From the NCBI GenBank assembly GCA_965243135.1, contig OZ251539.1, positions 1,472,001 to 1,536,000 on the forward strand: 64,000 bases of DNA. Reading direction: 5' to 3'. This stretch comes from Alphaproteobacteria bacterium. Lineage in GTDB: Bacteria; Pseudomonadota; Alphaproteobacteria; MPNO01; UBA830. Below are positions 36,225-64,000 of this stretch, piece by piece. Made by a program: the position numbers and the translations under genes. The first letter of the stretch is position 1. Each line of letters begins with the position of its first letter. The notes beneath the pieces were generated by a model. The model had not been told where the DNA came from and searched no databases. It saw only the letters and a program-made list of their open reading frames with translations.

Positions 36225-36911
36225 TTCTTGAGATCCGGCGAGACAGCGCGTCGTCGCGCTCCCGTTTTCGTCCCGGCGGCGGCTCCGCCCACCCGCGATT
36301 TCTTCGGCGCAACCTTCGCCCCTTCGCCTCTCGAAGTCGGCTCCGGGCGCGGCTTTACCGCGTTCAGGCGTCTCCGGCCGAACATCGGCGTTTCCCGCGC
36401 TGAAGAGGCGGCGAACGAGCGCTCCGCCCAACGCCGATCGGGAGACGAACGGCATCGGCGGGAAATCGGCGATCTTTGGGGAGGGCGAGGTTCGCCTGCG
36501 CACGATCCTCGATACCGAAGGCCCTGCGGCGCTCCGCTCTCAAGTAACGTCGCCCGGCGGCGCCTTTCGGCGGCGCCGGGCGCGAAAAATGCCGCTGGAC
36601 GCCGGGGCAGAGAGTGCGGCCGCCGCCTGAATAAGCCATTGCGGGGAGATTTTCGCGCCGCTCCCGGGGGATGCCCGCAGTCCCCGGGAGCGTCCGCTGC
36701 GAATCTGCAACCGCGTCGACAACGCTTGCCGTAAGCGCCGCACGCTGCGAAATCTCGAACGTACGGCATCCCAAAAAATTTTATTTCTGCTATACGTTCC
36801 CCTTGAAAACTTTTCATAACGCTATATGTTCATTTTATGTAATGCATTTCTGAAGGTTTTGGAATGTCCCCCCCGCGTCGACCGCGAAGGAGACGGAGAG
36901 GAGTCAAAGCC

Positions 36912-37988
36912 ATGGGTTACGACGCCATATACAAGAGTTTGTTCAATCATAGGCGGGTGTTCGCCGATCTGCTGCGCGGCTTCATCCCGACAAGGCTAAC
37001 CGGTACGATCGATTTCGATACCCTGCAACCGGTGCCGACGGAATACGCGAGCGGACGTCCGCTGCAGAGCGACATGGTCTGGCGCGTGCGCGTTCGCAAG
37101 GGCGGCCTGGAAGGGTGGTACTATGTTCTGGTGGAGTTCCAGTCCACGAGCGACTGGAAGATGGCGCTTCGTATGCTGAGATATGCTGGGGACATGCTCG
37201 ACAAGCTGTCGAACAACTTTCCGAAGCGTTCCGGCTGGAAACTGCCCCGAATACTGCCGGTGGTCATCTACAACGGGCGGAGTCCTTGGTTGGCGCCGGA
37301 GGGGATGGGCGATTTGAGCGTGGAGGTCGACGAAGATCTTCTGCCGTACGAGCCGCGGCAAAATTTCTTTCTGATTGACATTGGCAAGGTGGGCGTCAAC
37401 GATGCGCTGTTGGACAATGTGTTGTACGCGGAGGCGTTGATCGAGCAGGGCCGATGGGATGAGCTGCTGTCGGCGCTGCCGAAGCTGGATAAGGTGATCG
37501 ACCCGGACGCCGAAGCGGATCTTCGCTGTCTGATCGCGGAGTTGGTGCGGCAGGCGGCGGCAGGCGGCGGTCAGGCGACCGACGGCGAGGCGCTGGCGAA
37601 ACTGAAGGCGTACCAGAGGAAAGGGGAGCTGGGAGCGATGGGATCGTTGTTGGCCAAACGGATGGACGAGGCTATCGAGGAGAGAAGCGCCAAGGCCATG
37701 GCAAAGGGCAGGACAGAGGGCATGGCCCAAGGCATGGCCGAAGGCATGGCCGAAGGCATGGCCCAAGGCATGGCGCGGGGCATGGCGCGGGGCAAAGAGC
37801 ATCAGCGGGCGATGTTGTCGCGTCTGGCGGCGCGGAAGTTCGATGCGGATACGGCAACGCGGCTCGGGGCGCTGCTGGCGGCCGTCGACGACCCCGATGG
37901 CCTTGCCGCAATCGGGGACTGCTTGATCGACTGCGAAGATGGCGACGAGTTGCTGTCCCGCGTGGCGGGCGTCGCCAAACAGCACTGA
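36912..37988 (+). CDS. Rpn/YhgA-like PD-(D/E)XK recombination-promoting nuclease family protein
   Basis: YDAIYKSLF, SDMVWRV, VLVEFQS, MALRMLRY, LPVVIYNG, C-terminal EGMAQG repeats. Confidence 0.9.
   Translation: MGYDAIYKSLFNHRRVFADLLRGFIPTRLTGTIDFDTLQPVPTEYASGRPLQSDMVWRVRVRKGGLEGWYYVLVEFQSTSDWKMALRMLRYAGDMLDKLSNNFPKRSGWKLPRILPVVIYNGRSPWLAPEGMGDLSVEVDEDLLPYEPRQNFFLIDIGKVGVNDALLDNVLYAEALIEQGRWDELLSALPKLDKVIDPDAEADLRCLIAELVRQAAAGGGQATDGEALAKLKAYQRKGELGAMGSLLAKRMDEAIEERSAKAMAKGRTEGMAQGMAEGMAEGMAQGMARGMARGKEHQRAMLSRLAARKFDADTATRLGALLAAVDDPDGLAAIGDCLIDCEDGDELLSRVAGVAKQH
37719..37790 (+). repeat. 12-bp coding tandem repeat, 6 copies
   Basis: GGCATGGCCCAA, GGCATGGCCGAA x2, GGCATGGCCCAA, GGCATGGCGCGG x2, encoding GMA(Q/E/R). 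Confidence 0.95.
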
Positions 37989-40037: not shown

Positions 40038-41813
40038 TCAAGGGGCCGAGAGCGTTATGCGGAACGCGTGATCGACGGAGGCGCGGGCCGCCGCCGCGGC
40101 AAGTCCGGCCTCGGTTCCGGCGCGAATTCGATACAGCGGCGCATCGCGGGATATCCGGTCGCCCGGGCGCGCCATGAGTTCGATTCCCGCGCCCTTGTCG
40201 GCCGGCGCGCCCGCGGCGCGGGCGATGCCCGCTAGTCGAAAGCAGTTCACGGCTTCGATTTCCCCGTCGGAGCCTGCCGCGACCTCGGCCGCGTGAATTC
40301 CGACGGCGACGGGTTCGGGAACGCGGCCTTGGGCGGAGATCATTCGCTGCAGCGTTTCGTGCGCGGCGCCGCCGTCCAGAAGATCTTGCGCCCGCTTGCG
40401 GGCGTCGGCCTCCGTCATGGCCGGATCGAAGCGGAGAACGGCCGCCGCGAACTCCAACGCCTTTTCGCGCAGGTCGGCCGGCGCGCCGGCGTCGTCGCGC
40501 AGCACCGCCAGCGCGTCGCGCGCTTCCAGCGCGGGTCCGACTCCCCGTCCCACCGGTTGGCGTCCGTTCGTCAGGCGAACGTCGAGCTCGAGCCCCAGCG
40601 CCAGGCCGACATGCAGGAACAGGTCGCGCAATTTCGTCGCCGCGGCCTCGCCGCGAACCTTGGCGGTGGGACCGACCGGAACGTCGATGACGCAGTGAGT
40701 GGCGCCGGCCGCAACCTTCTTCGACAGGATCGACGCCACCGACCATGCGAGAGAGTCGATCCGCCGCGGGCGGGTGATCGCGTTCATCACGTCGTCCACT
40801 CGCGAGTGGGTTAACCGACCGTTCCAGACGATGCATCCGTTGGTCTCGCGCACGACGCGCCGCACCGCGTCCGCGTCGAGGTCGACCCGCGCCAGAACTT
40901 CCATCGCGTCCGCGGTGCCCGCCGGGGACGTGATCGCCCGGGACGACGCCTTGGGAATCGTCATGCCGTGCGCCGCGACGATCGGAACCACGATCGGAGT
41001 GATCCGGCTTCCCGGAATGCCGCCCATCGAATGCTTGTCGGCGACGAGATCCGCTTCCCACGCCAGCCGCTGCGCGAACTCGATGCGGGCGCGCGCAAGA
41101 CTGACCGTTTCGTCTCTGGCGAGCGTGGCCGCGGTCGCCGCCAGAAAATCAGCGACTTCTCCGTCGTCGAAACGGCCGGCGACGATGTCGCCCAACGCCT
41201 CCCGATAGCCCCTGCAGTCGAGCCTCGCGCCGTTGCTCTTGCGAACGAACGGCGAAGGATGCGATCGCGTGCCGCGGCGAAGCGCGTCGACGAAGCGGTC
41301 GACTCCCTCCTGCACGGTTCCCTCGTTGACGATCGCAATGCGGCTCGCGCCATCCGGAATGTCGGGGGAGGGTCGCGAGAGACGGCGGGCGATGTCGGCG
41401 GTCGTCTCCCGGGATCGCCTCGAAAGGCGAGCGGCAAGGATTTCGGTCGGCGCGGTCACCTCGAGCAGGAGGACGGGGGAATAGCGCGCGATGGCCTGGC
41501 CGACGATTCCGCGCGAGACGTTCGCGACGACGTGACGGCCGGACGCGAGCTCGGTTTCGCAGGAGGCCGGTATGCCGTATTTCAATCCGTGCGCGTTCCA
41601 GTGAAGCATGAATCCGCCCGCGGCGAGGCGTTCCGCGAACGCGGTCCGGGACATCGCTTCGTGGCGCTCGCCTCCGGCGGCGCACGGTCGCGTGATGGCG
41701 CGCCGGACGAAAGCGTACCGGGGGTCGCCTGCGAGCGCGCTGCGCGCGCCGTCAATCAGGGTGTCCTTTCCCGCGCCGCTGGGACCGACGACCAGGACGA
41801 GCGTGCCGGACAT
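40038..41813 (-). CDS. Fusion: ribose 1,5-bisphosphokinase (PhnN) + AMP/thymidine phosphorylase family domain
   Basis: N-terminal VVGPSGAGKDTL, RRAITRP, HGLKYGIP, ANVSR; C-terminal DKHSMGGIPG, PKASSRAITSPAGTADAMEVLA, SILSKK, QPVGRGVGPALEA, GAPADKGAG; one uninterrupted ORF. Confidence 0.9.
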   Translation of the reverse strand: MSGTLVLVVGPSGAGKDTLIDGARSALAGDPRYAFVRRAITRPCAAGGERHEAMSRTAFAERLAAGGFMLHWNAHGLKYGIPASCETELASGRHVVANVSRGIVGQAIARYSPVLLLEVTAPTEILAARLSRRSRETTADIARRLSRPSPDIPDGASRIAIVNEGTVQEGVDRFVDALRRGTRSHPSPFVRKSNGARLDCRGYREALGDIVAGRFDDGEVADFLAATAATLARDETVSLARARIEFAQRLAWEADLVADKHSMGGIPGSRITPIVVPIVAAHGMTIPKASSRAITSPAGTADAMEVLARVDLDADAVRRVVRETNGCIVWNGRLTHSRVDDVMNAITRPRRIDSLAWSVASILSKKVAAGATHCVIDVPVGPTAKVRGEAAATKLRDLFLHVGLALGLELDVRLTNGRQPVGRGVGPALEARDALAVLRDDAGAPADLREKALEFAAAVLRFDPAMTEADARKRAQDLLDGGAAHETLQRMISAQGRVPEPVAVGIHAAEVAAGSDGEIEAVNCFRLAGIARAAGAPADKGAGIELMARPGDRISRDAPLYRIRAGTEAGLAAAAARASVDHAFRITLSAP

Positions 41814-41820
41814 GCGGCGG

Positions 41821-42714
41821 CTACTTCAGGATCGTGACGTCGAGACCGATGTCGGCGGCGGGAGCCGACTGCGTCATGCGGCCGACGGAAAGCGCGTCAA
41901 CGCCGGATTCGGCCTTTTCCGCGATGTCGTCCAATCCGATGCCGCCCGAAGCTTCCGTGCGGCAGCGGCCGGCGACGATTTCCAGTCCCTTTCCCATCGT
42001 CTCGGCCGACATGTTGTCGAACATGATGACGTCGGCGCCCGCCGCGGCGGCTTCCTCTACCTGTTCGAGCGTGTCGCATTCGACTTCGATCTTGGTGAGG
42101 ACCGGCGTCAACGCGCGCGCTTGGGCGACCGCCTTGGTTATCGAGCCGTGCACCGCGATATGGTTGTCCTTGATGATTACGCCGTCGTGAAGGCCGAGGC
42201 GGTGCGGGCGGGCGCCTCCGACGCAGGCGGCGTATTTCGAGAGCAGCCGCAGGCCGGGCACCGTCTTGCGGGTGTCGATGAGCTGCGTTCGGGTATGGGC
42301 GATCGCCGAAGCGTACCGGTTCACCAGAGTCGCGATGCCGCACATGAACTGAAGGACGTTGAGCGAGGTGCGTTCGACGGTCAGCAAACCGCGCGCCGGC
42401 CCCCTGACTCTCATCATCGCCGCGCCCGCGCCGGCCTTCGCGCCGTCTTCGACGAGAGTCTCGACGGAAGCATCCGGAACCATGTGGCGAAACACTTCCG
42501 CCGCGACCTCGATGCCCGCGACCACGATGTTCTGGCGGGTGTTCATCGCGAAATCAGCCCTTGCGCCGGCCGGAATCAGAATGTTCGTCGTCAGATCCCG
42601 GTCGCCCGCGTCTTCGGCGACCCAGCTTTCGATCATGCGGCGAAGCGCTTCCGCCGAGGGCAGGAGAAATCCCGGATCTCCGCGCATTTCGCTCGGCGCG
42701 TCCGTTTTCGTCAT
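41821..42714 (-). CDS. nadC: Quinolinate phosphoribosyltransferase (decarboxylating)
   Basis: ERTSLN, DTRKTVPGLR, HRLGLHD..IIKDNH, EVECD, FDNM, EASGGI. Confidence 0.95.
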   Translation of the reverse strand: MTKTDAPSEMRGDPGFLLPSAEALRRMIESWVAEDAGDRDLTTNILIPAGARADFAMNTRQNIVVAGIEVAAEVFRHMVPDASVETLVEDGAKAGAGAAMMRVRGPARGLLTVERTSLNVLQFMCGIATLVNRYASAIAHTRTQLIDTRKTVPGLRLLSKYAACVGGARPHRLGLHDGVIIKDNHIAVHGSITKAVAQARALTPVLTKIEVECDTLEQVEEAAAAGADVIMFDNMSAETMGKGLEIVAGRCRTEASGGIGLDDIAEKAESGVDALSVGRMTQSAPAADIGLDVTILK

Positions 42715-42874: not shown

Positions 42875-43189
42875 ATGATCACGGTACTGGTGACCTACAA
42901 GCTTGCCGACGGCGTCGACCGCGCGGCGGCCCATGCGATGTCGCGGCAGGCGGCGCCGCGGTTCCGGGGAATCGACGGCCTTTGCAGCAAGCACTTTCTC
43001 TACCAGGAGGAAGAGGGGCTCGGCGGCGGCTTCTATACATGGGAGAGCCGCGAGAAGGCGGAGGCGTTTCATTCGGACGCCTGGCTGGATTCCATGGAGC
43101 AGCGCATGGGGTCGCGGCCCGAGCTGAGGTATTTCGAGACGGCGGTTCTCGTCGACAATTCGGCCGGCGAAATCCAGACCGCGGCGTGA
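42875..43189 (+). CDS. YdhR-like putative monooxygenase (dimeric alpha-beta barrel)
   Basis: GLCSKHFL...GGGFYTWESREKAEAFH; SD AAGGA before ATG 42875. Confidence 0.75.
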   Translation: MITVLVTYKLADGVDRAAAHAMSRQAAPRFRGIDGLCSKHFLYQEEEGLGGGFYTWESREKAEAFHSDAWLDSMEQRMGSRPELRYFETAVLVDNSAGEIQTAA

Positions 43190-43246: not shown

Positions 43247-44647
43247 CTATCGCCTGACCTGTTCGACCAGGCGCCGAATGGACGGGTCGTCCTTGCCCAT
43301 TGGCCTGACGCGGGCGAATTTCTCGCGTTCCTCGCCGCGCCAGGTCGCGGGCTTGGTGGCGTCGATGGCGAGCTTGCCGCCGACGCGCATGACCGTATAG
43401 TCCTTCCGCACTTCCGGGATCGAGATGTCCAGCGGATGCAGGCGCGTCCCCGGGATGACGTGCGCCATCGTTTCGGGGTTGCAGCGGCAGGCGATCGCCC
43501 ACAGCACGTCCTGCGCGTTGTAGATGTCGACGTCTTCGTCGACGGCGATGGCGACCTTGACGTGCAGATTCGGTCCCGACAGCGCCGAGATGAGCGTGTC
43601 GCGCGCTTGGCCGTCCCACTGCGCTTGCATCTGGACGATCATCATGAACTGCGAAGCCCAAGGCGGCACGAAGACGTCGAGAACGTTCGTGTTGCCGTGC
43701 GTGTCCCGCAGCCGGTTGTAGTAGGCCGCTTCCATCGGGAGGGTGATCAGGGGCTGGTGGTCCGTGAACCACGTCGCCTGTATGTGGCGGAAAATCGGGT
43801 CGCGTCGATGCGTGATGCCGGTGATCCGGTAAACCGGCGCAGGTCCCTCTGCGCCCGCGCCGAACGTCGTAAACTCGCCGAACGGCCCCTCCGGCGCCCG
43901 GTCGCGCGGATGAACGAGTCCTTCGATGACGATTTCGGCGTGAGCGGGGACCTCGAGGTCGATGGTTTCGCATCTGACCATCTCGATGTCCTCGCCGAGG
44001 ATGCCGGCTCCGTACTCCAGCTCGTCGAAGTCCTCGTGCTTTCCTGACCAGTTCGACATGATCTCGTACACCGGGTGCAGGCCGATGGCGAAAGCCATGG
44101 GCATCGGTTCGTCCTTCGCGGCGTATTTCATGTAATGCGCATAGTTGTGGCGGGCGGCCATCCAGAAGGTCGCTTTGTTCGGGTCGTCCGTCAGCATCAT
44201 CCGGATGATCGCTTCGTTGCGGATGCCGGTTTCGGGATCCTTGGTGATCGTGATGCCCGACCCGAGGTAGCGGCCGCCGTCGCCATGGCTGTGCTGCGGG
44301 ATGGGGAGCGCCCGTAGATCGACCGCGTCGCCGAGCAGCTTCACCTCCTTGACCGGACCGTCGCCGACCATGACCGAGCGGCCGCGTTCGGTGGCCATCC
44401 GCTCGGCGAGATAGGGGCAGACCTCCTGTGCGCGATCGAGTCCGAACGCGGCCGCCTGTCCCTCCCGGTCCATGATCAGCATGTCCGCGAGACGCCAGCC
44501 GGGGTAGCCCTTGAGGTTGTGGAACGTCAGCGGGCCCTTGCTTTCGGAGCACAGGTAGCCGACCTGGGTGACGGGATCGACTTCGTCATGGATGTGCAGC
44601 ATGCGGTTGTCGATGGTTTCGAGAAAACTGCGCAATGTGTGCGGCAT
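43247..44647 (-). CDS. UbiD family (prFMN-dependent) decarboxylase
   Basis: HSHGDGGRYL, VPAHAEIVIEG, EGPFGEF, VDEDVDI, IDATKP. Confidence 0.92.
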   Translation of the reverse strand: MPHTLRSFLETIDNRMLHIHDEVDPVTQVGYLCSESKGPLTFHNLKGYPGWRLADMLIMDREGQAAAFGLDRAQEVCPYLAERMATERGRSVMVGDGPVKEVKLLGDAVDLRALPIPQHSHGDGGRYLGSGITITKDPETGIRNEAIIRMMLTDDPNKATFWMAARHNYAHYMKYAAKDEPMPMAFAIGLHPVYEIMSNWSGKHEDFDELEYGAGILGEDIEMVRCETIDLEVPAHAEIVIEGLVHPRDRAPEGPFGEFTTFGAGAEGPAPVYRITGITHRRDPIFRHIQATWFTDHQPLITLPMEAAYYNRLRDTHGNTNVLDVFVPPWASQFMMIVQMQAQWDGQARDTLISALSGPNLHVKVAIAVDEDVDIYNAQDVLWAIACRCNPETMAHVIPGTRLHPLDISIPEVRKDYTVMRVGGKLAIDATKPATWRGEEREKFARVRPMGKDDPSIRRLVEQVRR

Positions 44648-44779
44648 GACCGACGGCTCCTTGGCGAGGCACGGCCGTCGTCCGCGCGGCCGAGGCCGTC
44701 GGGACGGCGCGCCTGATTTGAAAATCGTTCGCTGCGGGCATATTAACGTTTCGCGATCGAACAGGGAAAGGATCGACGG

Positions 44780-45994
44780 ATGGCGACGATGGCGGCTAGG
44801 GCGGCCGGGCATTCACCCCGCGTCTGGGGGAAGTTCGGTTGGGAAGATCCGATGAAGCTGGACGAACAGCTTACCGAGGACGAACGAATGGTGCGGGAGA
44901 CGGCCCGCCAGTACGCGCGGGAAAAGCTGATGCCGCGGATCGTCGACGCTTACAACGAGCAGCGCGTGGACAGGGACGTAATCCCCGAAATGGGCCAGCT
45001 CGGCTTGCTCGGTTCGACCATTCGCGGATACGGCTGCGCCGGCGTCAGCTACGTCGCCTACGGTCTGATCGCCCGCGAGATCGAAATGGTCGATTCGTCG
45101 TATCGATCGACGCTGTCCGTGCAGTCGAGTCTCGTCATGTGGCCCATCTACAACTACGGGACCGAGGAACAGCGCCGGAAATACCTGCCCGGGCTCGCCA
45201 GCGGCGAGTCGATCGGAGCGTTCGGCCTGACGGAGCCGGATCACGGGTCGGATCCCGGCGGCATGAAAACCCGGGCGGTCAAGGCGGACGGCGGCTATCG
45301 GCTGAACGGCAGCAAGACCTGGATCTCCAATTCGCCGATCGCGGACTTGTTCGTAGTTTGGGGCAAGGACGACGAGGGCATCATCCGAGGCTTCATTCTC
45401 GAGCGCGGCATGGAGGGCCTGTCCACGCCGAAGCTTCACAACAAGCTCAGCTTGCGGGCTTCCGTCACGGGCGAAATCGTCATGGACAACGTCTTCGTTC
45501 CGGACGAGAACTACCTTCCCGAAGCGCGCGGGCTCGGGGGTCCCTTCGGCTGCCTCAACAACGCCCGCTACGGCATCGCATGGGGCGCGCTCGGCGCCGC
45601 CGAGTTCTGCTGGCAGGCGGCGCGCGGCTACGCGCTCGACCGCACCCAGTTCGGCAAGCCGCTCGCTTCCTATCAGCTCGTCCAGAAGAAGCTCGCCGAC
45701 ATGCAGAGCGAGATCTTCATCGGCTATCAGTCCTGTCTCCGCATGGGCCGGATGATGGACGACGGATCGTGCTCGCCGGAGCTGATATCGATGCTCAAGC
45801 GCAATTCCACCGGAAAGGCGCGGGACATTTGCCGGGACGCCCGCGACATCCACGGCGGCAACGGCATCATGGACGAATACCACGTCATGCGGCACTTGAT
45901 GAACATGGAAACGATTTACACTTACGAAGGCACGCACGACATCCACGCGCTGATCCTCGGGCGGGCGCAGACGGGCATCCAGGCGTTCTTCTGA
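44780..45994 (+). CDS. gcdH: Glutaryl-CoA dehydrogenase
   Basis: [67 protein letters not shown]. Confidence 0.93.
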
Positions 45995-46016: not shown

Positions 46017-47240
46017 ATGGTCCGGCCGCTGGAGCATGTCCGCGTACTCGATCTGAGCCGCATCCTCGCCGGGCCGTGGGCGGGGCAGACCTTCGCCGAT
46101 CTCGGCGCGGAGGTCATCAAGATCGAACGGCCGGGCAGGGGAGACGACACGCGAGCTTGGGGGCCTCCCTACGCAGTCAGTCCTGATGGCGGGGAAACGG
46201 GCGAATCGGCTTATTTCCTGTCGGCCAACCGCGGCAAGAAATCGGTGACCGTCGACCTCGGCAAGCCGGAAGGCCAGGAGGTCGTCCGAGCCCTGGCGGA
46301 AACGTCGGACGTGTTGATCGAAAACTACAAGGCTGGCGGCCTGGCGGCGTACGGGCTCGATTACGAGGCGCTACGGCGGGTCAACCCGCGCCTGGTGTAC
46401 TGCTCCATCACGGGATTCGGACAGACCGGCCCGTACAGCGGCCGCGCCGGTTACGATTTCCTCATTCAAGCCATGGGCGGCCTGATGAGCGTCACGGGAG
46501 AGGCGGACGACCGGCCGGGCGGCGGCCCTCAAAAGGTCGGCGTCGCGCTGACGGACATCGTCACCGGGCTGTACACGACCGTCGCCGCGCTTTCGGCGCT
46601 CGCATGGCGCGAGAAGACCGGGCGCGGCCAGCACGTGGACATGGCGCTGCTGGACGCGACGGTCGCCGCGATGGCCAATCAGGCGATGAATTACCTGATC
46701 GGGGGCAGGGCTCCGGAACGGATGGGCAATGCGCATCCGAACGTGGTTCCGTACCAAGCCTACAAAACGGCCGACCACTACGTCATTCTCGCGGTCGGCA
46801 ACGACGAACAGTTCAGGAGGTTCTGCGAAGTCGCGGGCCGTTCGCAGCTGGCGGACGACGAACGCTTCGCGACCAATCGCGCCAGGGTGGTCAACAGGCG
46901 CCTGCTGGGCCCGATTCTCGACGAGGCCATCGGATCCAGGCCGCGCGCCTTCTGGCTGGAAGAGCTCGAGAAGGCGGGCGTTCCCTGCGGGCCGATCAAC
47001 GATCTGGCGCAGACGTTCGGCGACCCGCATGTCCTGGCGCGCGGCATGCGGCGCGAGCTTGAGCATCCGACCGCGATTTCGGTTCCCACGGTGGCGAATC
47101 CGATTCGGTTCTCGGAATCTCCCATCGAATACGACCGCGCGCCGCCGACGCTCGGTCAGCATACGGAGGAAATTCTGTCCGGCTTGCTCGGCAAGGACGC
47201 CTCGGAGATCGAGCGATTGCGGGAAATCGGGGCTATCTGA
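46017..47240 (+). CDS. CaiB/BaiF CoA-transferase (probable succinyl-CoA:glutarate CoA-transferase)
   Basis: VLDLSRILAGPW, NRGKKS, GYDFLIQAMGGLMS; directly downstream of gcdH. Confidence 0.9.
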   Translation: MVRPLEHVRVLDLSRILAGPWAGQTFADLGAEVIKIERPGRGDDTRAWGPPYAVSPDGGETGESAYFLSANRGKKSVTVDLGKPEGQEVVRALAETSDVLIENYKAGGLAAYGLDYEALRRVNPRLVYCSITGFGQTGPYSGRAGYDFLIQAMGGLMSVTGEADDRPGGGPQKVGVALTDIVTGLYTTVAALSALAWREKTGRGQHVDMALLDATVAAMANQAMNYLIGGRAPERMGNAHPNVVPYQAYKTADHYVILAVGNDEQFRRFCEVAGRSQLADDERFATNRARVVNRRLLGPILDEAIGSRPRAFWLEELEKAGVPCGPINDLAQTFGDPHVLARGMRRELEHPTAISVPTVANPIRFSESPIEYDRAPPTLGQHTEEILSGLLGKDASEIERLREIGAI

Positions 47241-47317: not shown

Positions 47318-47821
47318 ATGGCGTTGCCTGCGACGGACGAGGCCAAGCGCGAAGCCGGCGCCGCGAAGGACGGCGCGCCGGCTTTCGCGCTCCGCAAGCA
47401 GGTCGGCCATCTGCTGCGCCGGGCGCATCAGCGTCATACGGCGATCTTTCAGGCGATGATCGGCGACGGCCGGGTGACGCCGTTGCAGTTCGCCGTTTTG
47501 ACGACGCTCGCGGACATGGACGAAGCGTCGCAGAATCATCTCGGCCGTCTCACGGCCATGGACGCGGCCACCATGCAGGGCGTGATCAAGCGTCTGCTCG
47601 CTCGCGGGTTGATCAGGCGCCGCGCGGACCCGGGAGACCGGCGGCGCCTGCTGCTCACGTTGTCGGGGGCGGGCGAAGAGTTGGTGGCCGAGGTCACGGA
47701 TCGCGGCCACGCGATCAGCGAACGAACGCTGGAACCGCTGTCGGCCGCCGAACGGAAGACCTTTCTCCGCTTGCTCGGTCGCTTGTCGAGCAGCCCCGCT
47801 TCGAGGCGGCCCGTCGCCTAG
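47318..47821 (+). CDS. MarR family transcriptional regulator (NicR-like)
   Basis: QVGHLLRRAHQRHTAIF, TPLQFA, SQNHLGRLTAMDAATMQGVIKRL, DRRR. Confidence 0.88.
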   Translation: MALPATDEAKREAGAAKDGAPAFALRKQVGHLLRRAHQRHTAIFQAMIGDGRVTPLQFAVLTTLADMDEASQNHLGRLTAMDAATMQGVIKRLLARGLIRRRADPGDRRRLLLTLSGAGEELVAEVTDRGHAISERTLEPLSAAERKTFLRLLGRLSSSPASRRPVA

Positions 47822-59501: not shown

Positions 59502-59543
59502 TTGACTTGAGCGGAAAGGCCGCATTGTATGCATGCGAACGAT
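59502..59543 (+). promoter_or_regulatory. Putative promoter with overlapping palindromic operator for the Mo-hydroxylase operon
   Basis: TTGACT-N17-TTGTAT; imperfect palindrome ATTGTATGCATGCGAACGAT (59524-59543, 14/20 positions symmetric). Confidence 0.5.
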
Positions 59544-59558
59544 CTGGATCGGGCGGCA

Positions 59559-60419
59559 ATGTCATCCTACCTGAGACCCGAGAGTCTCGACGAGGCGTTG
59601 CGGGCGCTGGCCGACGGCGGCTACGCGATAATCGCCGGCGGGACCGACTTCTACCCGGCCAGGGTGGGCCGCGCGATTCGAGAAGACGTGCTGGACGTCA
59701 CCGCGATTCCGAACTTGCGGGGCATCGAGGATTGCGGAGATAGTTACCGCATCGGCGCGCTGACGACCTGGAGCGACGTGCTTCGCGCCGATTTGCCGGA
59801 CTGGTTCCGAGCGCTCCGGCTCGCGGCCCGTGAAGTCGGCGGAGTTCAGGTGCAGAATGCCGGAACGATCGTCGGCAACATATGCAACGCTTCGCCCGCC
59901 GCCGACGGCGCGCCGTGCCTGATGGCCATGGACGCGGCGGTCGAGCTTGCCTCGATCTCCGGCGAACGCGAGGTGCCGGTCGCCGGATTCGTTGCGGGCA
60001 ACCGGAAGACGGTTCGAAAGCCAGACGAAATGGTGATCGCCCTGCGCGTTCCGAAAGCCCGGCCTCGCGCTTCGAGCGTATTTCTGAAACTCGGCGCGCG
60101 CAGGTATCTGGTAATTTCGATCGTCATGGCGGCGGCCGTCCTGGAAACGGCTTCCGACGGCACCGTCGATCGGATGCGCATTGCAGTGGGCTCCTGTTCG
60201 GAGACCGCATGCCGGCTGCCGGATCTGGAGTCGGCTCTCGCGGGCCGGCCCGTCGACGCGGCGCTTGCCGACCGCGTCGCGACGGATTCGCTCGCGCCGC
60301 TGGCGCCGATCGACGACATGCGCGGCACCGCCGCGTACAGGATGGAGGCCGCGCTGACCATGGTGCGCCGCGCCGTCTCCGAGCTCGGAGGGCATGCATG
60401 CCAATCTCTTTCACGCTGA
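59559..60419 (+). CDS. Molybdenum hydroxylase FAD subunit (nicotinate dehydrogenase NdhF-like)
   Basis: AGGTD, VGGVQVQNAGTIVGNICNASPAAD, KLGARRYLVISI, PIDDMRGTAAYR. Confidence 0.92.
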   Translation: MSSYLRPESLDEALRALADGGYAIIAGGTDFYPARVGRAIREDVLDVTAIPNLRGIEDCGDSYRIGALTTWSDVLRADLPDWFRALRLAAREVGGVQVQNAGTIVGNICNASPAADGAPCLMAMDAAVELASISGEREVPVAGFVAGNRKTVRKPDEMVIALRVPKARPRASSVFLKLGARRYLVISIVMAAAVLETASDGTVDRMRIAVGSCSETACRLPDLESALAGRPVDAALADRVATDSLAPLAPIDDMRGTAAYRMEAALTMVRRAVSELGGHACQSLSR

Positions 60420-63148
60420 ACGGCGGCGCGGTTTCCGTCGAGTCCTCGCCGATCGTTCGGCTGGCCGAGGCGCTTCGCGGCGAACTGGGGCTGACCGGCA
60501 CGAAGGTGGGATGCGACGCGGGCGACTGCGGAGCCTGCACGGTGCTCGTCGACGGAGAGCAGTTCTGCTCCTGCATGGTTCCCGTCGCTCAGGTGGAGGG
60601 ACGCGAGGTCACCACCGTGGAAGGACTAGCGGCCAGGGACGGGCGCTTGTCGGCTATCCAGGAGGCGTTTCACCGCAACGGAGCGGCGCAGTGCGGCATT
60701 TGCACGCCCGGCATGCTGATGTCGGCGGCGGCGCTGCTCCGCAGCAATCCGCGGCCCGGAGAAGACGAGGTTCTCGACGCGATGGGCGGCGTGCTGTGCC
60801 GGTGCACGGGCTACCGCAAGATCGTCGACGCGGTGATGGACGCGGTCGCGCCGACGGATTCCGGGGGCGTCGAGCCCGAGGCGGGCGAGGCGATGGGCGC
60901 GCGCGCGCTCAAGACCGACGGAGTGCGCAAGGTCGACGGCAGCGAAATGTACGGCGCCGACCTGGCGCCGGAAGATGCGCTCTGGGTGCGAGTGGTGCGG
61001 TCGCCCCATGCCAGCGCGACCTTTTCGCTGGGTTCGCTGAAAGCTTTGCATGCCGCCCATCCCGGTCTCGTCAGGGTTCTTACCGCCGCCGACGTGCCCG
61101 GCAACAACGGCTTCGGCGTTTACCCGACGGTCAAGGACCAGCCTGCGTTCGCCGACGGCGAAGTGCGGTTTCGGGGGGAAGCGGTGGCGGCGTTGGTCGG
61201 AGACTACGCGACCGTCTTCGGCATTCGGGACGAGGAGGTGCCGATCGAGTACGCCGCGCGCGACCCGGTGCACGGCATCGACGCCGCCCTGGCCCCGGAC
61301 GCGCCTCGAATTCACGACGGCTATCCCGGCAACGTCTTCGCGCGCGGCCTGGTCCGAAAGGGCGACGCCGAGGCGGCTCTGGCGTCGGCCGACGTCGTCG
61401 TCGAGGACAGTTTCGAAACCGGTTTCGTCGAACACGCCTATATCGAGCCCGAGGCGGGATGGGCGCGTCGCGTCGGCGACCGTCTGGAGATAACCGTTAC
61501 GACCCAATCCCCGTACATGGATCGCGACGAGATGGCGCAGATCATCGGCATTCCGCCGGAGAGCGTGCGCATCGTTCCCACCGCCTGCGGCGGCGGTTTC
61601 GGCGGCAAGCTCGATCTCGGCGTGCAGATTCCGGTCGGCCTCGCGGCGTGGCTGCTCGACCGGCCGGTGCGCGGCGTCTGGAACCGCCCGGAATCGATGG
61701 CGGCGACGACCAAGCGCCACCCGTCGCGCATCACCGGACGCTACGGCTGCACGCGCGACGGCGACCTCGTCGCCTACCGGATGACCGGGGACTTCGACAC
61801 CGGCGCCTACGTCTCCTGGGGGATGACGGTGAAGGACCGGGTTCCGGTCCACGCGACGGGGCCTTATTTCGTGCCGCATGTCGACGCGAGGTCCCGCGCG
61901 GTCTTCACGAACGGCGCGCCCGCCGGGGCGTTCCGCGGCTTCGGCGTTCCGCAGGCGGCGATCGCCCACGAGGCGCTGATGGACGCGATGGCCGAAAAGA
62001 TCGGCATGGATCCTCTGGAGTTCAGGTTGCGCAACGCCATTCGAAAGGGCCAGCGTACCGCGACCGGGCAAGCGCTCGAACACAGCGCGGGGCTCGACCA
62101 GTGCCTCGAAGCCTTGCGCGATCGGTGGCGGTCGGCGCGAGCGGCCGCCGAGAAGTTCAACGCCGGAAGCGACGGCGTCCGGCGCCGGGGCGCGGGCGTC
62201 GGGTGCATGTGGTACGGCTGCGGCAATACCTCGATGAGCAATCCTTCGACCATGCAGATGGGAGTGGCGCCGGACGGAACGGTGACGCTCTACTCGGGCG
62301 CCCAGGACATCGGCCAGGGCACCAACACGACGATGGTGCAGGTGGCGGCCGACGCGCTCGGGATTCGCATGAGCGCGATACGGCTCGTCTGGGGAGACAC
62401 CGACCTGACCGCCGACGCGGGCAAGAGTTCGGCGTCCCGTCAGGCTTACGTGTCGGGCAAGGCGGCGATGCTCGCGGGCGAAAGCCTGAGGGCTCAGATC
62501 CTGCGGCTCGCCAACGTCGGCGAAGGCGCCTCGTTCGAATTCGAGTCCGGTTCGCTGATCGTTCGCGACGGCGACGCCGCGCGCGTCATCGATCTTTCCG
62601 CGATGCCCGCCGACAAGCCGCGCGGCAACGTGCTGTTCGGCGAGGCGACGTTCGACCCCCCGACCACGCCGCTCGACGAGATGGGGCAGGGGAGCCCCTA
62701 CGGCACGTACGCTTTCGGGGCGCAGGTGGCGGAGGTGGAGGTCGACACGGAACTCGGGACGGTCAAGGCGCTTCGCGCGTGGGCGGCCCACGACGTGGGC
62801 GCCGCCATCAACCCGATGCAGGTGGAGGGGCAAATCCACGGAGGAGTCGCCCAGGGGCTTGGCTTCGCCCTCATGGAGGAATACGTCCCCGGGCGCACCG
62901 AGAACCTGCACGATTACCTGATCCCGACGGTCGGGGACGTGCCTCCCATCGAGGTGTTGACGATCGAGGATCGCGAACCGACCGGGCCCTACGGGGCCAA
63001 GGGCATCGGGGAACCGGCGCTCATTCCCACGGCGCCGGCGATCTTCGGCGCGATCCGCCACGCGACGGGGGCGCGAATCAAACGCGCGCCTGCGACGCCC
63101 GACCGCGTCCGCTCCGCCATTCTGGCGGCCGGAGGGGAAAGGCCGTGA
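60398..63148 (+). CDS. Fused [2Fe-2S] + molybdopterin subunit, probable nicotinate dehydrogenase
   Basis: GCDAGDCGACT, QCGICTPG, LCRCTGY, then GGGFGGK, GAFRGFGVPQ, GQIHGG, GAKGIGE; followed by an hnr-like gene. Confidence 0.85.
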   Translation: MPISFTLNGGAVSVESSPIVRLAEALRGELGLTGTKVGCDAGDCGACTVLVDGEQFCSCMVPVAQVEGREVTTVEGLAARDGRLSAIQEAFHRNGAAQCGICTPGMLMSAAALLRSNPRPGEDEVLDAMGGVLCRCTGYRKIVDAVMDAVAPTDSGGVEPEAGEAMGARALKTDGVRKVDGSEMYGADLAPEDALWVRVVRSPHASATFSLGSLKALHAAHPGLVRVLTAADVPGNNGFGVYPTVKDQPAFADGEVRFRGEAVAALVGDYATVFGIRDEEVPIEYAARDPVHGIDAALAPDAPRIHDGYPGNVFARGLVRKGDAEAALASADVVVEDSFETGFVEHAYIEPEAGWARRVGDRLEITVTTQSPYMDRDEMAQIIGIPPESVRIVPTACGGGFGGKLDLGVQIPVGLAAWLLDRPVRGVWNRPESMAATTKRHPSRITGRYGCTRDGDLVAYRMTGDFDTGAYVSWGMTVKDRVPVHATGPYFVPHVDARSRAVFTNGAPAGAFRGFGVPQAAIAHEALMDAMAEKIGMDPLEFRLRNAIRKGQRTATGQALEHSAGLDQCLEALRDRWRSARAAAEKFNAGSDGVRRRGAGVGCMWYGCGNTSMSNPSTMQMGVAPDGTVTLYSGAQDIGQGTNTTMVQVAADALGIRMSAIRLVWGDTDLTADAGKSSASRQAYVSGKAAMLAGESLRAQILRLANVGEGASFEFESGSLIVRDGDAARVIDLSAMPADKPRGNVLFGEATFDPPTTPLDEMGQGSPYGTYAFGAQVAEVEVDTELGTVKALRAWAAHDVGAAINPMQVEGQIHGGVAQGLGFALMEEYVPGRTENLHDYLIPTVGDVPPIEVLTIEDREPTGPYGAKGIGEPALIPTAPAIFGAIRHATGARIKRAPATPDRVRSAILAAGGERP

Positions 63149-64000
63149 GCGCCGACGTCGTCACTTGCGACGCCTGCCCGGTGCTGTGCCGCATCCGCGA
63201 GGGCAAGACGGGCGCCTGCAGCCGCTACGGAAACGAGAACGGCGTTCTGACCCGCATGGATCCGCTCGTCGTGACCCAGCGGGTCGCGGACGAGAACGGC
63301 GAACTGGTGCCGTTTCTGCCGGCTTCGGAGGATCCGGACGGCGCGCTGAATTTCGAACGGCCGTCCTTCGTGACCGGCATCGGCGCGACCACGACCTATC
63401 CGGATTACAAGCCGGCGCCGTTCATCGTTTCCTCCGAGCACGCCGGCGTCGACATGGTGACCGTCGTATCCGAGGGAATCTTCAGCTATTGCGGGGTCAA
63501 GATCAAGATCGACACCGACCGCTACATCGGGCCCGAACCCGCTCCGGTGCGGGTGGACGGCGAGCAGATCGGCCACGTGACCACGGCCGAATACGGCTCG
63601 CAGATGCTGGCGCTCGGCGGGGTGCGGCACCTCACCGGCGGCAGCAAGAAGGAAGGCAACGTCACCTGTCAGGCCATGCTGGCGCTGTGCAACGGGCAAC
63701 CGGTCGAGATGACCGTGGACGACGGCGCCGCGCTGACGGTCGAGGCCGGCAAGCCGCCGGTCATAGACGGCGAGCGGGAGGAGCGCATGCGCGTGGGCTG
63801 CGGTTCGGCGACCATCGGGATCTTCGCCCTGCAGTGGCACGGCCACGTGGACGAGGTGATCGTGGTCGACGACCACATCACCGGCGTTCTGACCGAGCAT
63901 CAGTCGGGAAAATTTCTCGACATGCCGCCGACAGGCATTCGCGTGGCGGGCCGCCGGTCGACGCCGGGGCGGTATTTTCAGGTCGCCGAACCGGGCGGCG
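63145..64000 (+). CDS. 6-hydroxynicotinate reductase-like protein (proteobacterial type), runs off the window
   Basis: Manual translation from GTG 63145: MSADVVTCDACPVLCRIREGKTGACSRYGN...TTYPDYKPAPFIVS...GIFSYCGVKIKIDTDR...MRVGCGSATIG; absent from the ORF track because it is truncated. Confidence 0.8.
   Translation, partial: MSADVVTCDACPVLCRIREGKTGACSRYGNENGVLTRMDPLVVTQRVADENGELVPFLPASEDPDGALNFERPSFVTGIGATTTYPDYKPAPFIVSSEHAGVDMVTVVSEGIFSYCGVKIKIDTDRYIGPEPAPVRVDGEQIGHVTTAEYGSQMLALGGVRHLTGGSKKEGNVTCQAMLALCNGQPVEMTVDDGAALTVEAGKPPVIDGEREERMRVGCGSATIGIFALQWHGHVDEVIVVDDHITGVLTEHQSGKFLDMPPTGIRVAGRRSTPGRYFQVAEPGG

Follow-up and report, generated by a model that had tools for sequence, protein, structure and literature searches.

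A nadC-linked fusion of a PhnN-type kinase and an AMP-phosphorylase-like domain, conserved in Proteobacteria and predicted to regenerate PRPP for NadC

The window that we analyzed, a 64,000-nucleotide stretch (positions 1,472,001 to 1,536,000) of contig OZ251539.1 from an alphaproteobacterial genome that is 98.8% complete (GCA_965243135.1), carries on its minus strand nadC, encoding a 297-aa quinolinate phosphoribosyltransferase (41821..42714; TIGR00078, QRPTase_N and QRPTase_C), followed by an ORF with an ATG start that encodes a 591-aa protein (40038..41813). The two genes are separated by 7 nt (CCGCCGC, 41814..41820), and a promoter and terminator scan showed no promoter-like site and, between the two genes, no terminator-like site. 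One terminator-like site is present upstream of nadC (42877-42895); shuffled sequences lead to an expectation of 2.4 such sites. The 591-aa protein is composed of a PhnN-type ribose-1,5-bisphosphate (R15P) kinase domain (aa 3-179, 41277..41807), a short linker (aa 180-189, 41247..41276; columns about 196-293 in an alignment of the fusions), and a type-2 (AMP-phosphorylase-like) nucleotide phosphorylase domain (aa 190-586, 40056..41246; NF003338, TIGR03327 and structure matches). An earlier note on this DNA had described such a two-domain ORF beginning 7 nt past the nadC stop codon, and the ORF list, the NCBIfam scores and the sequence of the junction (TAG-CCGCCGC-ATG) confirm both points.

The kinase domain matched TIGR02322 (NCBIfam) over nearly the full profile (aa 3-179 align with positions 1-177 of 179) with a score of 193.3 bits, above the cut-off of 156, in agreement with its proposed identity as PhnN. 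Its P-loop, GPSGAGKDT (aa 10-18), is shared by 12 of the 13 fusions that were aligned, and the thirteenth row begins past the motif. From the known activity of the family, the domain is predicted to convert R15P and ATP to PRPP. There are no phn genes in the window, as had been noted, and a search of the whole genome for PhnJ (PF06007) yielded no matches, the E. coli control being positive. Likewise, the genome contains no RuBisCO large subunit and no R15P isomerase above the cut-off (the best e2b2 match scored 145.6 bits vs 314.1), consistent with the proposal that R15P has a fate here other than the archaeal isomerase and RuBisCO. The fused domain is the only PhnN above the cut-off in the genome, and since no other recognizable consumer of R15P is present, R15P is the logical shared intermediate.

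The phosphorylase domain, the sole gene of its kind in the genome, scored 523.3 bits against NF003338/PRK04350 (cut-off 434). Its closest solved structure is the Thermococcus kodakarensis AMP phosphorylase (4GA4/4GA5, 248-249 bits), compared with about 110 bits for human thymidine phosphorylase and 77 bits for the E. coli enzyme, and the DeoA-type models were all missed (TIGR02643, 118.1 bits vs a cut-off of 570.7; NF004490, 167.6 vs 269; TIGR02644, 159.3 vs 409). Both AMP-phosphorylase-type motifs that had been picked out previously were found, at aa 259-268 (DKHSMGGIPG) and aa 287-302, and both align with the T. kodakarensis enzyme. The claim that this is an archaeal-type phosphorylase nevertheless holds only in part. 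The domain resembles AMP phosphorylase more than the nucleoside phosphorylases, but the two models suggested for verifying it were matched below their cut-offs (TIGR02645, 417.9 bits vs 434.6 for the fusion protein; TIGR03327, the AMP phosphorylase equivalog, 365.6 vs 535, with aa 189-586 corresponding to profile positions 90-492), the archaeal-type N-terminal domain (about 85-90 aa) is absent from the window protein (relatives of about 680 aa have it at the position of the linker), and the pocket is changed. By analogy with the archaeal enzyme, the domain would release R15P and a free base from a nucleoside 5'-monophosphate and phosphate.

To place the fusion among its relatives, we compared 80 related loci, comprising 25 fusions and 55 stand-alone phosphorylases. 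nadC is located directly upstream of the phosphorylase gene in 25/25 fusion loci and in 0/55 stand-alone loci (compared by an exact test), and the nadC-linked fusions span the Alpha-, Beta- and Gammaproteobacteria. Cupriavidus, Variovorax, Bosea and Rhodoplanes are among the carriers that can be cultured. None of the 55 stand-alone phosphorylases adjoins nadC or PhnN; the next gene in 45 of these loci is instead Prs-like. The earlier note had counted a nadC linkage unique to this genome as a possible argument against its proposal, and the synteny indicates that the linkage is not unique. These data show that an archaeal-type nucleotide phosphorylase fold was recruited twice in Proteobacteria, with a Prs-like partner in the stand-alone form and with PhnN and NadC in the fusions. 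On the strength of these sequence comparisons, we take the 591-aa protein to be a real bifunctional enzyme that forms an obligate two-gene module with NadC, and the fusion probably regenerates the PRPP that NadC uses. Architecture and linkage thus support the core idea of a route from a nucleotide via R15P and PRPP to NadC. As for the accompanying claim that PRPP would be made without Prs, the two-domain architecture and the nadC linkage fit such a route, but the bypass is not a necessity, as a canonical prs is present in the genome (375 bits).

NadC itself scored 302.4 bits against TIGR00078 (cut-off 198.4), 69.5 bits against QRPTase_N and 189.1 bits against QRPTase_C, and the copy adjoining the fusion gene is the single nadC found by profile search in the whole genome. 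The fusion-linked copies in all 25 fusion genomes scored 303-331 bits against TIGR00078, and in 18 of these genomes the linked copy is likewise the sole nadC. Four genomes (G003, G008, G018 and G024) have a separate nadC that adjoins nadA, indicating that the fusion-linked nadC there is an extra, non-housekeeping paralog. Genome searches detected no nadA in the window's genome or in 19 of the 25 fusion genomes, and the module therefore occupies the single point of entry to NAD, de novo or by salvage, in those organisms.

The surroundings of the module point to quinolinate and nicotinate. Importers (Bug27-type quinolinate binders, TRAP and MFS) are present in 12 of the 25 fusion loci, and Bug27 orthologs in fusion loci score 437 and 457 bits to 2QPQ; Bug27 has been shown to bind quinolinate (PMC11452294). 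The window contains a MarR-family regulator gene (47318..47821, plus strand; Pfam), and homologous MarR genes occur in 7/25 fusion loci (six detected by tblastn and that of L014 by Pfam). Nicotinate-catabolic genes lie within 6 kb of the module in 10/25 fusion loci, and in L022 and L023 they form one operon with nadC (in the order hydroxylase, reductase, UPF0280 protein, nadC, fusion). In the window's genome, no Bug gene is located beside the pair, and 21 kb separate it from the nicotinate-catabolic island. On the plus strand, this island includes genes for the FAD-binding subunit of a xanthine-dehydrogenase-family Mo-hydroxylase, a candidate nicotinate dehydrogenase (59529..60419; FAD_binding_5, CO_deh_flav_C), for the fused 2Fe-2S and molybdopterin-binding large subunit of the same hydroxylase (60420..63148, start approximate; Fer2_2, Ald_Xan_dh_C, MoCoBD_1/2), which is 58% identical to the L022 gene product and whose ortholog heads the L022 and L023 operon, and the 5' part of a gene for a 6-hydroxynicotinate reductase homolog (63157..64000, running to genome position 1536599; 69% identity to the L022 gene). 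Close relatives of the latter are named 6-hydroxynicotinate reductase by NCBI and JGI. The reductase homolog was found in 20/25 fusion genomes and 13/50 control genomes, a co-occurrence that is confounded by taxonomy, and was absent from the remaining five fusion genomes (G003, G008, G016, G017 and G024). PF02073, used as a marker of the aerobic nicotinate pathway on the presumption that NicX has an M29-like fold, matched only in three Bosea genomes, with scores typical of true aminopeptidases.

Other neighbors were considered as parts of the module and rejected. In searches of the 80 loci by tblastn, a UbiD-family decarboxylase gene (43247-44812, minus strand) and a gene for a glutaryl-CoA-dehydrogenase-like ACAD (44780-45994, plus strand) recur in L013 and L020, and a family III CoA-transferase gene (46017-47240, plus strand) recurs in L013 (all three assigned by Pfam); these neighbors, and with them the BKACE and cyclase genes, are confined to the window and its closest relatives (L012, L013 and L020) among the loci searched.

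The fusion had been proposed to feed NAD synthesis, but its surroundings are those of quinolinate uptake and nicotinate breakdown, not of NAD synthesis alone, which brings nicotinate mononucleotide (NaMN) into consideration as an alternative substrate. The pocket of the phosphorylase domain bears on the same question. In a group-specific residue comparison, eight residues (R243, S262, N331, H336, N344, T347, W357 and F455) were invariant in the fusions and present in 0/55 stand-alone enzymes; at positions 243, 331, 336, 344 and 347, the stand-alone enzymes retain the archaeal state and the fusions have changed. S262, N344, T347 and W357 appear to map on or beside Ser117, Tyr199/Arg202 and Ile214 of the human thymidine phosphorylase active site (residues as given in PMC2719695), in a sequence alignment whose register is uncertain by one residue near Arg348. 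Among the changes are one from Glu to Thr and one from Leu to His, and these would be favorable for a base that is anionic. In a tree that is unrooted (midpoint only) and without archaeal sequences, the phosphorylase domains of the fusions group in a single clade (SH-aLRT 100) with the stand-alone PRK04350 enzymes as sister group; the state of the fusion clade is called derived after visual comparison with a single archaeal sequence. Because the equivalog cut-off is missed, the N-terminal domain is absent and pocket residues are invariantly different, AMP, CMP and UMP as substrates of the fusion are an assumption.

We tentatively favor a reading in which the cleaved nucleotide is NaMN, NadC's own product, such that NadC and the fusion would form an ATP-driven quinolinate-to-nicotinate cycle. 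NadC would convert quinolinate (imported or derived from tryptophan breakdown) and PRPP to NaMN, CO2 and PPi; the phosphorylase domain, acting as a NaMN phosphorylase (a new activity), would convert NaMN and phosphate to nicotinate and R15P; and the kinase domain would use ATP to turn R15P back into PRPP, yielding ADP. Overall, ATP would drive the decarboxylation of quinolinate to nicotinate while phosphoribose is recycled as a carrier, and the nicotinate would then enter, in most carriers, the 6-hydroxynicotinate/THON catabolic pathway encoded nearby, with part of the NaMN still going to NAD. The pyridinium N-glycosidic bond is energy-rich, so phosphorolysis of NaMN should run downhill. Moreover, each quinolinate that passes through NadC for catabolism would otherwise use up one PRPP, and such a drain accounts for a dedicated recycling enzyme better than a small, vitamin-level flux would. 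To our knowledge, NaMN is not among the substrates that have been tried on the AMP-phosphorylase-type family. Some observations count against the cycle: cleaving the product of the sole nadC (18/25 fusion genomes and the window's genome) would compete with NAD synthesis; PncB would allow a futile loop from nicotinate back to NaMN, and the expectation that carriers would lack PncB and so avoid this loop failed, as PncB-family genes are present in 16/25 fusion genomes; and in the five genomes without the reductase, no fate for nicotinate is apparent.

The main rival is a generic NMP source, in which ordinary NMPs (AMP, CMP, UMP) would be cleaved to R15P to fill a private PRPP pool, and NadC would draw on this pool to convert imported or kynurenine-derived quinolinate to NaMN for NAD. 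We regard this alternative as possible but somewhat doubtful. It has precedent in the archaeal AMP phosphorylase, which acts on AMP, CMP and UMP, and in E. coli PhnN, which supports NAD synthesis (both as cited in PMC9700705 and PMC11452294), and the same idea is in print for nadC-phnN (PMC11452294). It would also accommodate the genomes in which the linked nadC is the only one and nadA is missing, as well as the five carriers in which nicotinate catabolism was not detected, and PncB would be harmless under it. However, NAD synthesis needs little PRPP and a canonical prs is present, which makes the strict 25/25 coupling hard to explain, and salvage of the adenine released from AMP itself consumes PRPP. 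In addition, the fusion pocket is invariantly unlike the AMP-phosphorylase-like state kept by the stand-alone enzymes, the module is an addition in genomes that already have a complete nadA and nadC set, and in L022 and L023 the module shares one operon with nicotinate-catabolic genes, all of which speak against a generic NMP source.

The remaining alternatives fare less well. If the phosphorylase acted on nucleosides or another ribosyl compound (giving, for example, ribose-1-phosphate), or the kinase on a substrate other than R15P, then PRPP would no longer connect the enzyme to NadC. The missed AMP phosphorylase equivalog cut-off, the remodeled pocket and the name thymidine phosphorylase used by some sources would fit such a view; we consider it quite unlikely, since AMP phosphorylase is far closer than thymidine phosphorylase (249 vs about 110 bits), TIGR02643 is missed by a wide margin, the kinase domain clears the PhnN equivalog cut-off along the whole profile, and the invariant partner NadC uses PRPP. 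Another alternative is that the enzyme works toward synthesis and salvages nicotinate independently of PncB: PRPP and ADP would give R15P, and nicotinate and R15P would give NaMN, in parallel to NadC. Guanylate-kinase-type kinases are reversible, and the window's genome and 9/25 fusion genomes contain no PncB/NadV-family gene yet have nicotinate-handling genes. On thermodynamic grounds, however, a simple 1-phosphate ester should not readily yield a pyridinium N-glycosidic bond (PncB needs ATP coupling even with PRPP), PncB is present in most carriers, and the fusion suggests a flow of R15P from phosphorylase to kinase, the known direction for both families, making this alternative very unlikely. 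Finally, that the fusion is left over from phosphonate (C-P lyase) metabolism, as its NCBI name ('phosphonate metabolism protein ... PhnN') would have it, or adjoins nadC by chance, is contradicted by the absence of PhnJ, the 7-nt spacer and an adjacency that is kept in every fusion across three proteobacterial classes and in none of the controls, and we give it almost no credence.

Depending on the source, the protein is publicly named 'phosphonate metabolism protein PhnN' or 'thymidine phosphorylase'; both names are misleading, as neither fits the context of this widespread protein, which points to a bacterial role of R15P and PRPP regeneration outside C-P lyase. Our literature search found no publication on a PhnN-thymidine phosphorylase fusion or tying quinolinate to R15P, no published biochemistry or experiment on the fusion, and, in titles and the openings of abstracts, no quinolinate-to-nicotinate route; the paper that it returned for PhnN together with AMP phosphorylase is silent on a fusion. 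If the NaMN cycle is correct, it would represent the first defined role for R15P in bacteria outside phosphonate breakdown and a previously undescribed entry route for quinolinate into nicotinate catabolism, combining a new enzyme activity with a new catabolic logic in which the phosphoribosyl carrier is recycled like a cofactor. It would also account for a possible removal of quinolinate by bacteria, or its use for growth, and would matter for NAD homeostasis where NadA and PncB are missing.

The module shares parts with several known systems. The archaeal AMP (NMP) phosphorylase of the pentose bisphosphate pathway, or NMP shunt (T. kodakarensis; 4GA4, 4GA5, 4GA6), has the same DxHSxGG and PKxSSRAITSxAGTAD motifs as the window's domain, for which R15P is the presumed product; the latter, by contrast, is fused to a kinase, lacks the N-terminal domain of about 90 aa, has five changed pocket-region residues, and is found in a genome with neither R15P isomerase above the cut-off nor RuBisCO. 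E. coli PhnN, of the C-P lyase pathway, belongs to the same equivalog model that the window's kinase domain passes over its full length, and PRPP made by PhnN serves NadC in E. coli (as cited in PMC9700705 and PMC11452294); here, however, there is no phn operon, and the kinase is fused to a phosphorylase and always located beside nadC.

Our data also suggest similarity with catabolic and salvage loci. Gene content matching nicotinate catabolism via 6-hydroxynicotinate/THON (Eubacterium barkeri; the Azorhizobium caulinodans/Bradyrhizobiaceae cluster, PMC3511419) accompanies the module in the form of a Mo-hydroxylase, a 6-hydroxynicotinate reductase homolog, an enamidase-like amidohydrolase and two conserved unknown proteins, whereas that literature, in the portions accessible, mentions no nadC, no fusion and no quinolinate as entry substrate. 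Quinolinate salvage loci of Betaproteobacteria are arranged as nadQ-nadC-bug69 in Bordetella and as bug27-nadC-phnN in Variovorax and Jezberella (PMC11452294), and the nadC-'phnN'-Bug27 arrangement is also present in L014, L015, L038, L039 and L064. The adjacency of nadC and phnN and the idea that PhnN supplies PRPP to NadC are thus already in print, where they are raised in passing and without the phosphorylase domain ('thymidine phosphorylase' has 0 occurrences in the accessible text of PMC11452294); the fusion loci differ in that MarR, not NadQ, is the recurrent regulator, and the window's lineage has no Bug27 beside the pair. A further related system is the stand-alone type-2 'thymidine phosphorylase' (PRK04350) with its Prs-like gene (PRK07199 subfamily), which belongs to the same NCBIfam subfamily as the fusion and is also coupled to a PRPP-related enzyme (45/55), but which keeps the N-terminal domain, the archaeal-type pocket, and DKHCIGG where the fusion has DKHSMGG.

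The fusion and nadC are encoded on the minus strand as adjacent ORFs of 591 aa (40038-41813) and 297 aa (41821-42714), and the junction between them reads TAG, seven bases, ATG. NCBIfam profiles placed a PhnN (ribose-1,5-bisphosphate phosphokinase) domain at aa 3-179 (TIGR02322, 193.3 bits, cut-off 156) and assigned the rest of the protein to the type-2 "thymidine phosphorylase" family (NF003338, 523.3 bits, cut-off 434); it scores far under the cut-offs of DeoA-type models. NadC was identified by TIGR00078 (302.4 bits, cut-off 198.4), and both QRPTase domains were found. These data bear out throughout the observation in the earlier note of a kinase-phosphorylase fusion behind nadC, and both motifs that it cited were found (aa 259-268 and 287-302). 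Its reading of the second domain as AMP-phosphorylase-type holds in part: the nearest solved structure is the T. kodakarensis AMP phosphorylase (248-249 bits, with human thymidine phosphorylase at ~110 bits), but the match to the archaeal equivalog TIGR03327 scores 365.6 bits, under the cut-off of 535, and starts only from profile position 90. In alignments the fusions fall into two architectures, a ~680-aa form that retains a ~90-aa archaeal-type N-terminal domain, placed between kinase and phosphorylase, and a ~590-aa form, including the window protein, that has lost it.

The surroundings hold several further features. A UbiD-family decarboxylase (43247-44812, minus strand) lies just upstream of nadC, is kept at 83% identity in two related loci (L013 and L020), and may use a pyridine or aromatic carboxylate as substrate; a 125-aa plus-strand ORF with no family matches lies between the two genes. 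In a 665-aa ORF (50500-52497, minus strand) a GPP34 (Golgi phosphoprotein 3) domain at the N terminus is joined to a cytochrome P450 domain, a pairing that is unusual for a bacterium. Short GMA(Q/E/R)-type repeats follow one another near aa 280-305 of a 374-aa ORF (36864-37988, plus strand). DNA near-identical to 40038-42714 occurs in sequencing runs labelled sponge metagenome (0.53-0.81 of sampled words).

The fusion is widespread, and it is misannotated in public databases. Its best 120 database relatives are all 570-702 aa long and are named "phosphonate metabolism protein ... PhnN" by NCBI and "thymidine phosphorylase" by JGI; UniRef labels one "Multifunctional fusion protein". Scanning one genome per species yielded 80 loci, in which linkage was scored by tblastn with the two fusion halves and NadC as queries. 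The synteny with nadC is kept in relatives: nadC lies directly upstream, on the same strand, in 25/25 fusion loci, whereas neither nadC nor PhnN was found within 6 kb of any of the 55 stand-alone phosphorylase genes (those without a PhnN part), a contrast that was put to an exact test. Carriers include Rhodospirillaceae MAGs, Rhodoplanes, Bosea, Methyloligellaceae and a Rhodobacteraceae isolate among the Alphaproteobacteria, Cupriavidus, Caballeronia, Variovorax and Ottowia among the Betaproteobacteria, and the gammaproteobacterium Salinicola. Full fusions are rare in an even sample of 301 same-class genomes (G000 and G318 certain, G227 and G327 possible), in which stand-alone phosphorylases and stand-alone PhnN are far commoner; one genome of this sample, G115, is unpublished, and no claim is built on it.

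To relate the two groups, we built a maximum-likelihood tree from 80 phosphorylase cores: that of the window, 24 from fusion loci and 55 from stand-alone loci. L046, whose 3.1-kb contig truncates the gene, was omitted. In this unrooted tree of bacterial sequences, without archaeal ones, a single branch (SH-aLRT 100) splits fusion from stand-alone phosphorylases. Taxa are intermixed within the fusion clade, with Bosea, for example, among Betaproteobacteria, which suggests horizontal spread. A ~297-aa gene comes after the stand-alone phosphorylase in 45 of the 55 loci, and a representative (L091:5787-6680, plus strand) passes the Prs-like subfamily model PRK07199 (NF005537; 345 bits, cut-off 322). 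A PRPP-related enzyme is thus the partner of both bacterial phosphorylase branches, and the stand-alone phosphorylase with its Prs-like gene is a second conserved pair of this kind. A beta-CASP/MBL-type gene of ~530 aa is also nearby in 26/55 stand-alone loci (e.g., L089:8087-9685).

At eight alignment positions the two groups never share a residue, and each group is invariant or almost so (fusion/stand-alone: R243/M, S262/C, N331/G, H336/L, N344/I, T347/E, W357/Q and F455/L). Alignments with one archaeal enzyme, compared by eye, show the stand-alone state at 243, 331, 336, 344 and 347, and therefore it is the fusion lineage that changed. We placed these positions on the sequence of human thymidine phosphorylase (chain index + 6 = residue number, verified on the DKHS motif), with active-site residues as given in PMC2719695. 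On this map S262 aligns with Ser117, N344 and T347 fall in the Tyr199/Arg202 base-binding segment (with a register uncertain by one residue), W357 adjoins the residue aligned with Ile214, and the base-contacting Arg, Ser and Lys are retained as R348, S361 and K365. A Glu has been lost and a His and an Asn gained beside the base-binding Arg, changes that would suit nicotinate or another anionic base.

The genome that contains the window, a single 6.1-Mb contig that is 98.8% complete, has no other PhnN over cut-off and no other type-2 phosphorylase. It contains no PhnJ and therefore no C-P lyase, extending to the whole genome an absence that had been noted for the window. RuBisCO is likewise absent and no R15P isomerase exceeds its cut-off (best match 145.6 bits versus 314.1), and therefore the fused kinase is the only recognisable consumer of R15P in this genome. 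With a canonical prs in the genome, this route need not replace Prs, and the earlier proposal of PRPP synthesis "without Prs" does not stand as a necessity. The genome has no nadA, no nadB over cut-off, no PncB/NadV-family gene and exactly one nadC, the copy adjoining the fusion; no entry to NaMN other than NadC is visible. A 3-hydroxyanthranilate dioxygenase is encoded (254 bits, cut-off 146), and quinolinate probably comes from tryptophan through the kynurenine route.

Among the 25 fusion genomes, many of which are MAGs such that absences are provisional, nadC was found over cut-off in all (single copy in 18, at least two in 7), nadA in 6 and not in 19, and 3-hydroxyanthranilate dioxygenase in 10; in another 10 neither nadA nor the dioxygenase was found, and quinolinate would need to be imported there. 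In four genomes (G003, G008, G018 and G024) a second nadC adjoins nadA, which makes the fusion-linked copy a distinct paralog there. In G018 (Variovorax, the genome of L038), nadA and a 6-hydroxynicotinate reductase homolog each match as two adjoining pieces (C3:49054-49988 and C109:14806-16292), which suggests frameshifts or assembly errors.

Clustering and then annotating neighbouring ORFs identified recurrent partners of the fusion. Importers are present in 12/25 fusion loci: Bug27-type TctC in L014, L015, L038, L039 and L064 (two such proteins score 437 and 457 bits to PDB 2QPQ), TRAP-TAXI in L027, L030, L033, L035 and L041, and MFS in L019 and L059. A MarR gene occurs in 7/25, and also in the window (47318-47821). 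Ten of the 25 loci carry further genes within 6 kb: one for a ~490-aa protein named 6-hydroxynicotinate reductase by NCBI and JGI, one for a UPF0280-type protein (NF003322), one for an amidohydrolase, and one or two for PF06684 proteins. The Mo-hydroxylase gene comes first in L022 and L023, followed by those for the reductase, the UPF0280 protein, NadC and the fusion, and tight spacing on one strand indicates a single operon. Reductase homologs occur in 20/25 fusion genomes versus 13/50 stand-alone genomes (L087-L091 left out), an odds ratio of 11.4 that is inflated by relatedness, and by coordinates the reductase and the linked nadC share a contig and lie no more than 30 kb apart in 11/25.

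The same nicotinate-type set occurs in the window's genome ~21 kb away from nadC, as a nicotinate-catabolism-like island (59529-64000 and beyond; locus L093:529-7713; genome 1541585-1545542). Its genes encode the FAD subunit of a Mo-hydroxylase (59529-60419), a 2Fe-2S/MoCo fusion subunit (to 63148) and a 6-hydroxynicotinate reductase homolog (from 63157, continuing beyond the window end), followed past the window end by MoaA, PF06684 proteins and an amidohydrolase. Two of the conserved partners, the PF06684 and UPF0280-type (NF003322) proteins, have no assigned function; this genome's UPF0280 homolog sits apart (genome 3769920-3770714). The enamidase-like amidohydrolase (genome 1544383-1545542, ~window 72383-73542 and hence outside it; L093:13383-14542) matches its homolog as two adjoining pieces in different frames, joined at genome 1545300, which suggests a possible frameshift or sequencing error, and a second, more distant copy lies beside another PF06684 gene (genome 1876427-1877557).

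At the sequence level, a putative nucleotide-cleaving (AMP phosphorylase) type domain is fused to a PhnN kinase with NadC as invariant partner. Because of the known activities of both families, we consider it likely that the phosphorylase would use Pi to split a nucleoside 5'-monophosphate into free base and R15P, and that the kinase would convert R15P and ATP to PRPP for NadC. Our favoured candidate for the cleaved nucleotide, held tentatively, is NaMN, in which case the NadC, phosphorylase and kinase reactions would close a cycle with the net reaction quinolinate + ATP + Pi -> nicotinate + CO2 + ADP + PPi. The strict coupling to nadC, the remodelled pocket, the importers and MarR regulator, the operon in common with nicotinate catabolism, and the status of the linked nadC as an extra paralog where a genome has the full de novo set all argue for such a cycle, as does cost, since catabolic flux through NadC would otherwise use up a PRPP for each quinolinate. 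Against it, the linked nadC is the sole copy in 18/25 genomes and in the window's genome, PncB-family genes occur in 16/25, and no nicotinate pathway was detected in five carriers. The version in the earlier note, in which ordinary NMPs supply the ribose and quinolinate salvage is directed to NAD, is a serious rival, which we judge somewhat less likely.

In the literature searched, supplements aside, we found no paper on the fusion or joining quinolinate to R15P; mention elsewhere is possible. The rival's idea of a PRPP supply to NadC for quinolinate salvage is already in print for "nadC-phnN" neighbours of bug27 in Variovorax and Jezberella (PMC11452294); that paper leaves the phosphorylase domain unmentioned. 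As set out in PMC3511419, the nicotinate degradation cluster of Azorhizobium and Bradyrhizobiaceae carries out its first three steps via THON, includes two conserved unknown proteins, and runs its later steps via glutarate; the island in the window's genome matches this cluster in content.
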